Positions 234 through 272 of a stretch of DNA of 5,737 bases are shown one piece after another. Numbering within the stretch: the first letter of the stretch is position 1; each line of letters starts with the position of its first letter. The translations under genes were made by a program, and so were the position numbers. The stretch comes from a virus. Its lineage: Duplodnaviria; Heunggongvirae; Uroviricota; Caudoviricetes. Below the pieces are notes generated by a model that ran no database searches, was not told the origin of the DNA, and was given only the letters and a program-made list of their open reading frames with translations. The stretch spans positions 1 through 5,737 of the IMG/VR virus record IMGVR_UViG_2667527770_000006; one strand, 5' to 3'.

Positions 234-272
234 TTTCGCCATTTGGTTGCGATAGCCAAGGGCGGTAGCGTA
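234..272 (+). promoter_or_regulatory. JUMPstart-like element with ops (operon polarity suppressor) motif; predicted RfaH-dependent antitermination site in the 5' leader
   Basis: GGCGGTAGCGTA at 261-272 matches the 12-nt ops consensus GGCGGTAGCGTG at 11 of 12 positions. The preceding agccaag resembles the conserved 3' half of the JUMPstart sequence (recalled as ...AGCCAGGGGCGGTAGCGTG). It sits 44 bp upstream of the ATG at 316. The promoter itself, between the IS1 end and ops, is not confidently located. Confidence 0.65.

Follow-up and report, generated by a model that had tools for sequence, protein, structure and literature searches.

RfaH is a virulence regulator, and in each strain, just a handful of operons are known to belong to its regulon. 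In Escherichia coli CFT073, the 8 ops sites that function are all found in 5' leaders: they are on the non-template strand, 27-817 nt past the transcription start and 40-634 nt short of the first gene, with H-NS-bound DNA following them. Each of the 34 ops-like sites of this strain that do not function lies within a gene (Hustmyer et al. 2022, PMC9765446). The canonical JUMPstart of E. coli K-12, found in the rfb and waaQ leaders, combines a GGCGGTAGCGT core, an AGCC box, a GGT(A/T)GC box and a 5-bp hairpin. The classical gtrABC operons of P22, SfII and epsilon34, which are O-antigen-modifying cargo located at prophage ends, are organized differently, with Dam/OxyR phase variation, a 25-nt leader and no ops; the P22 gtr transcript begins 25 bp before gtrA, under Dam/OxyR control (PMC2909390). 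Here we describe a locus that has features in common with both kinds of systems, namely, a stretch of 5,737 nucleotides from the IMG/VR virus record IMGVR_UViG_2667527770_000006 (positions 1 to 5,737; this whole stretch is hereafter called the window), in which a JUMPstart/ops element at positions 234-272 stands upstream of a two-gene, AT-rich cassette that is predicted to modify a surface glycan.

Judged by homology and genomic context, the segment 234-272 is a genuine JUMPstart element, with an ops site at its 3' end, and heads an AT-rich operon of surface-structure genes, in agreement with a preliminary description of this DNA that was made from the letters alone. The switch itself is of a familiar type, but its location is unusual: the JUMPstart subtype is known though under-annotated, RfaH binding to the 12-mer has already been proven at another locus, and in the window, the element precedes a prophage-borne cassette for probable ribofuranosyl transfer. 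The core, both boxes, the 5-bp hairpin and the leader position are shared with the canonical K-12 elements, but the window has A at position 12, a U-A outer stem pair where theirs is C-G, and a 5' third that bears no relation to theirs. Similarly to the classical gtr operons, the window carries O-antigen-modifying cargo at a prophage end, but it has a JUMPstart, contains no gtrA or gtrB, and its leader (149-315) contains no GATC, so that the hallmarks of gtr-type Dam/OxyR control are missing. We estimate at roughly two in three the probability that, in the present IS1-truncated setting, this element recruits the RfaH of the host to express the cassette.

A diverged JUMPstart element with a terminal ops site

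The element reads tttcgccatttggttgcgatagccaagggcggtagcgta. The claim that the 12-mer GGCGGTAGCGTA departs from the ops consensus at the last base only is confirmed by direct reading of positions 261-272: the site agrees with GGCGGTAGnnTG at 11 of the 12 positions, has A at position 12 and is on the correct strand. This is the single match in the window to GGCGGTAGCGTG when up to one mismatch is allowed, with 0.01 such matches expected by chance (only 2 of 200 shuffled windows contained one), and the 8-mer core GGCGGTAG also occurs once, compared with the expectation of 0.09. The ops strand is non-template relative to the downstream genes (first start codon at 316), and no plus-strand open reading frame (ORF) of at least 40 amino acids is found over 188-315; hence, the site lies inside an untranslated leader, at a distance of 55 nt from the ATG at 316, which is inside the 40-634 nt seen for the validated sites.

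Directly 5' of the 12-mer, agccaag occupies positions 254-260. Its likeness to the 3' half of JUMPstart, pointed out in the preliminary description, holds in an alignment of 12 sequences: the AGCC(A/T)(G/A)G box that is followed by the GGCGGTAG(C) core is present in the window as agccaag GGCGGTAGCGTA (254-272), and these columns are invariant. When the leader is aligned with the JUMPstarts of K-12 rfb, K-12 waaQ and CFT073 kpsM, the full layout becomes apparent, with the GGT(A/T)GC box, the AGCC box and the ops core in common, and with a loop that is 2 nt shorter than canonical. The hairpin that characterizes the family (cUGGu...gCCAg), just 5' of the core, is retained in the window and is present in the predicted minimum-free-energy fold as well. 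Over the 12 sequences, 98.3% of the cells in the stem are paired, compared with 6-60% in controls with slid partners, and two of the stem pairs vary on both sides (UA/CG and UA/AU), that is, are compensatory relative to rfb and waaQ. An extended RNA helix of 11 bp, formed by the TCGCC box and the first ops bases, was considered and rejected: it is predicted in the minimum-free-energy fold but shows no compensatory changes and includes many unpaired cells across the family.

Among the Rfam models, the best cis-regulatory match of the window is to JUMPstart (RF01707), at positions 243-271 of the plus strand, with a score of 22.6 bits and E=0.15. Members of the same subtype score 21-27 bits, including those that precede bona fide O-antigen clusters, compared with 60 bits for K-12 rfb and 55 bits for waaQ. 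The low score reflects the divergence of the subtype, with its 2-nt shorter loop and different 5' third, rather than any peculiarity of the window copy. On this sequence evidence, the element is a diverged JUMPstart subtype that is under-detected by the curated Rfam model, and automated RF01707 annotation will miss this subtype, which is common in Klebsiella-type and O8/O9-type clusters.

Relatives of the element precede polysaccharide clusters

A 50-nt query, run with a relaxed E-value, detects relatives at 80-100% identity in 763 of 5,426 E. coli genomes. In every context inspected, a polysaccharide cluster of the same orientation follows, its first gene ~60-80 bp from the element. The contexts are a GT4/wzm/wzt cluster in the selC island, an rfbBADC-wzm-wzt cluster (IS26-flanked and plasmid-borne), the O8-type manC-manB-wzm-wzt cluster, a plasmid galF-manC-manB-gmd cluster, and kpsM of the group 2 capsule. 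With one genome scanned per species, this subtype is also detected in Klebsiella, Raoultella, Enterobacter, Atlantibacter and Pantoea (14 species in total), where it is followed by rfbB, manC, wzm, or a GT4-family (PF00953) gene that, by sequence reading, appears to be WecA-like. The sole match in a non-enterobacterial genome ('Pseudomonas nitroreducens') was discarded as a chance match within a coding region, GGCGGTAGCTTT.

The JUMPstarts of ABC-transporter-type O-antigen clusters (O8-type, and the wb clusters of Klebsiella, Raoultella, Enterobacter and Atlantibacter) are of the same subtype as the window element, the common pattern being a (T)ACGC/TCGCC box, TTTGGTTGCGATAGCCAA(G/T), and then GGCGGTAGCGT(G/A). 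Compared with the O8-type copies, the window is identical in 29-31 of 31 nt, with the same hairpin and 60-80 nt to the first gene, and some of these copies likewise end in GTA. The difference is in what follows: the elements of those clusters precede long chromosomal or plasmid O-antigen operons of at least 8 genes, whereas the window element precedes a two-gene cassette in a prophage remnant, with an IS1 113 bp upstream.

The ops variant with A at position 12

It had been of concern that the terminal G to A change might abolish the recruitment of RfaH; this concern is met by the published binding at two CFT073 sites. The ops sites bound by RfaH in chromatin immunoprecipitation followed by sequencing include c1882, which is GGCGGTAGCGTA, that is, identical to the 12-mer of the window, with binding detected only in the hns stpA double mutant, and kpsM, which is GGCGGTAGCATA, with A at position 12 and the strongest RfaH peak in the wild type (Hustmyer et al. 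2022, PMC9765446, Data set S2A); the sequence of the kpsM site was re-read in the CFT073 genome. Both of these sites are in leaders, on the non-template strand, before H-NS-bound, horizontally acquired DNA, and the window site is in a leader, on the same strand. The c1882 site precedes type VI secretion PAAR/Vgr genes and lacks the JUMPstart hairpin, whereas the window retains the hairpin. In vitro, the G12C substitution led to the loss of the U11 pause, with RfaH recruitment kept (Zuber et al., PMC5995543). GTA endings occur naturally in O8-type, plasmid-borne and kps JUMPstarts, and in all three JUMPstarts of Atlantibacter. In this comparative analysis, A12 is best regarded as a tolerated natural variant and not as a defect, and genome scans should keep ops sites that end in A.

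The downstream two-gene cassette

The G+C content is 26-40% over 300-3100, compared with 47-55% in the flanking prophage and IS1 DNA, and the two cassette genes, which are co-oriented, have ~30% G+C. This composition, together with the rarity of the cassette among E. coli genomes, is that of horizontally acquired, putatively H-NS-bound DNA. The coordinates of all features of the window are given in Table 1.

Table 1. Features of the window around the JUMPstart element and the ribofuranosyl-transfer cassette
Feature	Positions	Strand	Evidence and remarks
IS1 remnant, insA-proximal (left) end	1-148	-	Within the 99.8% match to PK8277, where the opposite strand is annotated with an IS1 family transposase (frameshifted, partial)
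Native leader 5' of the element	149-233	+	76.5% identical to the QDFD216 gtrA leader; weak promoter candidates only
JUMPstart element, Klebsiella/O8-O9 wb subtype	234-272	+	39 bp; alignment with 11 other JUMPstarts, RF01707 match, relatives before polysaccharide clusters
JUMPstart hairpin	243-259	+	5-bp stem TTGGT/GCCAA (243-247 with 255-259), 7-nt loop
ops site GGCGGTAGCGTA	261-272	+	Non-template strand; predicted RNA polymerase pause at T271 (U11); A not G at position 12
AT-rich leader from ops to start codon	273-315	+	No recognizable Shine-Dalgarno sequence; reads ...tatataagcaagtcaaATG
GT-A fold (GT2) protein, 281 amino acids, STM0725-like (ORF1)	316-1161	+	Pfam PF00535, 26.5 bits
Dual-domain ribofuranosyltransferase, 647 amino acids (ORF2)	1163-3106	+	N-terminal HAD phosphoribose phosphatase, C-terminal glycan phosphoribosyltransferase (predicted)
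Terminator-like hairpin followed by nine T	3349-3384	+	-16.5 kcal/mol, z = -2.6; the transcription unit may end here
Second terminator-like hairpin followed by seven T	3493-3521	+	-11.9 kcal/mol, z = -2.0
Prophage tail genes convergent with the cassette	3526-5268	-	Small ORF, tail fibre fragment (PHROG), DUF2612 baseplate protein (Pfam)
Second IS1, runs off the window	5477-5737	+	ggtaatgactccaacttattgatag matches the IS1 end in the QDFD216 locus; IS1A in the PK8277 annotation

The family of ORF1 is small, with 17 clusters, and its members adjoin an orthologue of ORF2 in Serratia, Rosenbergiella and Salmonella. The Serratia pair is at the end of an O-antigen cluster, beside gnd and his, and the Salmonella pair is in what, judged by its neighbours, is the T1-antigen locus region. 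ORF2 matches PDB 7SHG ('Ribofuranosyl transferase') along nearly its full length (residues 4-602, E=1.2e-13) and the ribofuranosyltransferase/phosphatase part of Bcs3 (E=3.8e-16), both of its domains being covered by these matches, its N-terminus matches the HAD-IA model TIGR01549, and it is 70% identical to the orthologue from the Salmonella T1 region and 54% identical to that from Serratia. The true start of ORF2 is likely to be the ATG at 1163, not the alternative ATG at 1148, because the orthologue alignments begin at the methionine encoded there.

The STM0725/STM0726 pair polymerises ribofuranose onto an O-antigen-like glycan, and such pairs are also found in other genera and in a phage (PMC11294581). 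The window pair is of the same type as STM0725/STM0726 of the Salmonella T1 locus, with a GT-A-fold partner and a dual-domain ribofuranosyltransferase, but the T1 pair ends an 8-gene ABC-transporter cluster under a FimB-like invertible promoter, whereas the window pair is a prophage-borne unit by itself, preceded by a separate JUMPstart. The homology of both gene products agrees with the placement of the AT-rich operon in the envelope/surface-structure class, and the cassette probably adds ribofuranose to the cell-surface O-antigen, extending or decorating it. A ribofuranose-containing O-antigen modification (or a poly-ribofuranose cap) is thus predicted in a few E. coli lineages, including O176:H45 MIN9, which bears on serotyping and on phage receptors.

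In Salmonella enterica contigs, the canonical GGCGGTAGCGTG is found at 5876-5887, 125 bp before the first biosynthetic gene of a T1-like locus. This locus is flanked on the upstream side by a FimB-like recombinase and on the downstream side by nei, abrB and gltA, neighbours by which it is judged to be a deletion variant of the T1-antigen locus. The Salmonella T1 operon may, accordingly, also be RfaH-dependent; the T1 paper describes the invertible promoter and does not mention RfaH (PMC11294581).

Prophage setting and comparison with gtr operons

The window derives from the E. coli chromosome and matches strain PK8277 at 99.8% identity. The cassette is prophage cargo at the tail end of a degraded prophage, as indicated by the convergent tail genes and by the O176:H45 strain MIN9, in which the same cassette lies beside a tail-fibre assembly gene of an intact-looking prophage. 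It is present in 8 of the 5,426 complete E. coli genomes and in 2 viral contigs, in all cases with IS1 at the same junction, and no IS1-free copy was found among the copies located. These two viral contigs are the only ones that a scan with a strict 28-nt pattern recovers; a looser 15-mer scan of the viral contigs gave mostly chance matches in environmental contigs and was set aside. No blastn match to a similar leader was obtained in sequenced phages.

In the window, two inverted copies of IS1 (1-148 and 5477-5737) enclose the cassette together with the remnants of the tail genes, and in PK8277, a serine recombinase/invertase gene is located after the second copy. This arrangement resembles a decayed prophage end, which might be mobile as an IS1 composite. 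In the copy from strain ET846 (8177-14665 of its locus), the GT-A gene is cut by IS1, and a phosphoethanolamine transferase gene, flanked by IS1 and IS5, separates the two cassette genes.

A search with 281 nt surrounding the site returned, besides the cassette copies, two unrelated loci, QDFD216/50EVAW and D53-1. In the D53-1 prophage, the similarity of the gtrA leader to the window is confined to 233-271 (95% identity), and the ops is the canonical GGCGGTAGCGTG. The window and both of these prophage gtr leaders, which are otherwise divergent, have the core TTTGGTTGCGNTAGCCAAGGGCGGTAGCG without variation. The gtr type with this JUMPstart block is represented in just three E. coli genomes. In QDFD216 and 50EVAW, the ops has decayed to GGCGGTAGCGAG, with T11 lost, and an IS1 with an 8-bp target duplication (aaattata) is inserted 11 bp after the 12-mer, parting ops from gtrA (8101-8126 and 8827-8946 of the QDFD216 locus); apparently, the QDFD216 leader is an inactivated copy of the same leader. 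The three leaders form a mosaic: QDFD216 has sequence in common with the window on the upstream side of the block and with D53-1 on the downstream side, and the 39-bp block alone is common to all three, a pattern that would fit cassette exchange at the element as well as regulation. The classical phage gtrA leaders (SfII, P22, epsilon34, BUCT554, ENT47670 and ENT1) contain no ops or near-ops within 500 bp, and in the literature that was searched, we found no link between RfaH, ops or JUMPstart and the modification of O-antigen by gtr operons or prophages.

Proposed mechanism and alternative explanations

The distance of ~113 bp between the element and the IS1 end, given in the preliminary description, is correct: the IS1 terminus (...gcagcattacc, the same terminal sequence as in the IS1 of the QDFD216 locus) stops at 148, and the leader spans 149-315, that is, 167 bp. 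The homology to the QDFD216 leader starts at the IS1 junction and covers window positions 157-270, at 76.5% identity, so that at least 104 bp of native leader survive between IS1 and ops. A distance of only 27 nt separates the validated ops of rfaQ from the start of transcription (PMC9765446), and thus, a promoter inside 149-233 would suffice. A looser scan identifies two 8/12 candidates 5' of ops, TTGCAA-17-AACAAT (163-191) and the extended -10 TGtTACTAT (202-210). The idea that the native promoter was replaced or supplemented by an outward-reading or hybrid IS1 promoter was abandoned for lack of sequence support: the adjacent end is the insA end, from which the transposase reads away, the -35-like hexamer TTAGCA is degenerate, and there is no -10 at a spacing of 15-19.

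Under the RfaH mechanism that we favor, RNA polymerase would start in or upstream of 149-233, transcribe ops and pause at U11 (T271), and the exposed non-template strand would form the small ops hairpin (C3:G8, with T6 flipped out). This hairpin would recruit the host RfaH, with A12 probably weakening the U11 pause and leaving RfaH loading possible; RfaH would then remain on the polymerase, shut out NusG, reduce pausing as well as Rho/H-NS-dependent premature termination in the AT-rich genes, and help ribosomes to load on the leader, which has no recognizable Shine-Dalgarno sequence. The lack of such a sequence is consistent with RfaH-assisted ribosome loading (for background, see PMC5995543), without being proof of it. 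The cassette product would extend or decorate the O-antigen with ribofuranose.

Several observations weigh against this mechanism. The standard scan finds no sigma-70 promoter of at least 9/12 in 149-260, or in the QDFD216 homologue, and IS1 occupies the same junction in every known copy of the cassette, so that the original promoter may be lost. The RF01707 score is below the gathering threshold of 35 bits, the operon is short (2.8 kb), unlike the classic RfaH targets, and the decay in QDFD216 indicates that the element is not always maintained. With regard to the variant base, the validated K-12 targets all have TG at positions 11-12, and all substitutions but G2C reduced RfaH stimulation in a reporter (PMC5995543); the A12 site is probably weaker than the consensus, with a weaker U11 pause.

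Some of the same facts would be expected if the element were an inert relic, such that the JUMPstart came with the cassette from an O-antigen cluster, insertion of IS1 at a distance of 113 bp took the promoter away, ops is no longer transcribed and the genes are not expressed. We consider this unlikely, although it is the alternative to be taken most seriously: 149-260 contain no promoter of at least 9/12, all 8 genomic and 2 viral-contig copies have IS1 at one and the same junction, the prophage around the cassette is decayed and ridden with insertion sequences, and in QDFD216, the related element lacks T11 and is cut off from gtrA by IS1. Silence of the cassette is less easily reconciled with the integrity of both ORFs in unrelated strains (from chicken, pig, human, sewage and frog, as well as O176:H45 at 97.5% identity), and the at least 104 bp of native leader, with their weak promoter candidates, could accommodate a start as close to ops as that of rfaQ.

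A different reading of the same letters is that ops overlaps a promoter, composed of TTGCGA (247-252), an 18-bp spacer and TAGTAT (271-276), in which A272 would be the key -10 adenine and transcription would start 3' of ops, making the latter promoter DNA and not a signal that is transcribed. This site scores 8/12 in the looser scan, an analogue in D53-1, TAGCCA-18-TATTAT (9/12), also overlaps ops, and in P22, the gtr start is just 25 bp before gtrA (PMC2909390). Such a promoter is nevertheless quite improbable: its score is no better than those of the upstream candidates, sites of this quality are frequent in AT-rich DNA (21 found vs 14.9 expected), the block is conserved as JUMPstart before clusters with known upstream promoters (rfb, kps and O8), and the -10-like hexamer is not conserved among the members of the subtype.

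The mosaic leaders, with the 39-bp block as the sole part common to the window, QDFD216 and D53-1, raise the question whether the block is mainly a recombination junction at which polysaccharide cassettes are swapped, being conserved for exchange rather than for regulation. Exchange of this kind is compatible with an ops function, the most invariant part of the block is the core contacted by RfaH, and the identical 12-mer at c1882, without a JUMPstart hairpin, still binds RfaH; we see only a slim chance that exchange is the main role of the block. Finally, a chance match in AT-rich intergenic DNA, which could be suspected given the shortness of the 12-mer and the 34 ops-like sites of CFT073 that do not bind RfaH, is effectively refuted by homology, considering that 0.01 matches are expected per window, that the adjoining 27 nt resemble the JUMPstart family too, including its hairpin, and that the non-functional CFT073 sites, unlike the window site, are all within genes.

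Possible implications for lysogenic conversion

It is tempting to generalize from the window and D53-1. Tentatively, and with somewhat less than even odds, we propose that a small class of temperate-phage cargo operons, consisting of the ribofuranose cassette and a rare gtrABC subclass, has captured JUMPstart/ops, and that in this class, O-antigen lysogenic conversion is driven by the host RfaH against H-NS/Rho silencing. If this is true, such conversion follows a route that is distinct from the Dam/OxyR phase variation of the classical gtr operons, and RfaH is a host factor exploited by phages for surface-remodelling genes. Even for the single element described here, functionality would extend the RfaH regulon to prophage-carried, O-antigen-modifying cargo and would suggest how strongly AT-rich phage cargo escapes H-NS/Rho silencing without an anti-terminator of its own. 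The possible dependence of phage cargo on the host RfaH is the most interesting aspect of this locus.

Two additional features of the DNA around these cargo genes deserve mention. The D53-1 gtr leader contains clustered GATC sites, cGATCGATtatgaaaaattGATC (7905-7935 of the locus), ~100 bp upstream of the JUMPstart, resembling the Dam/OxyR signature of Salmonella gtr, and this operon might combine phase variation with ops. Downstream of the cassette, the window contains a 27-nt palindrome, CCGGTAAC-N11-GTTACCGG (3197-3223), which recurs at 92.6% identity in the D53-1 gtr prophage (7812-7838 of the locus), there on the other side of the cargo, ~190 bp 5' of the JUMPstart; from its sequence and placement, it may be a cargo boundary, a recombination site or a phage terminator.

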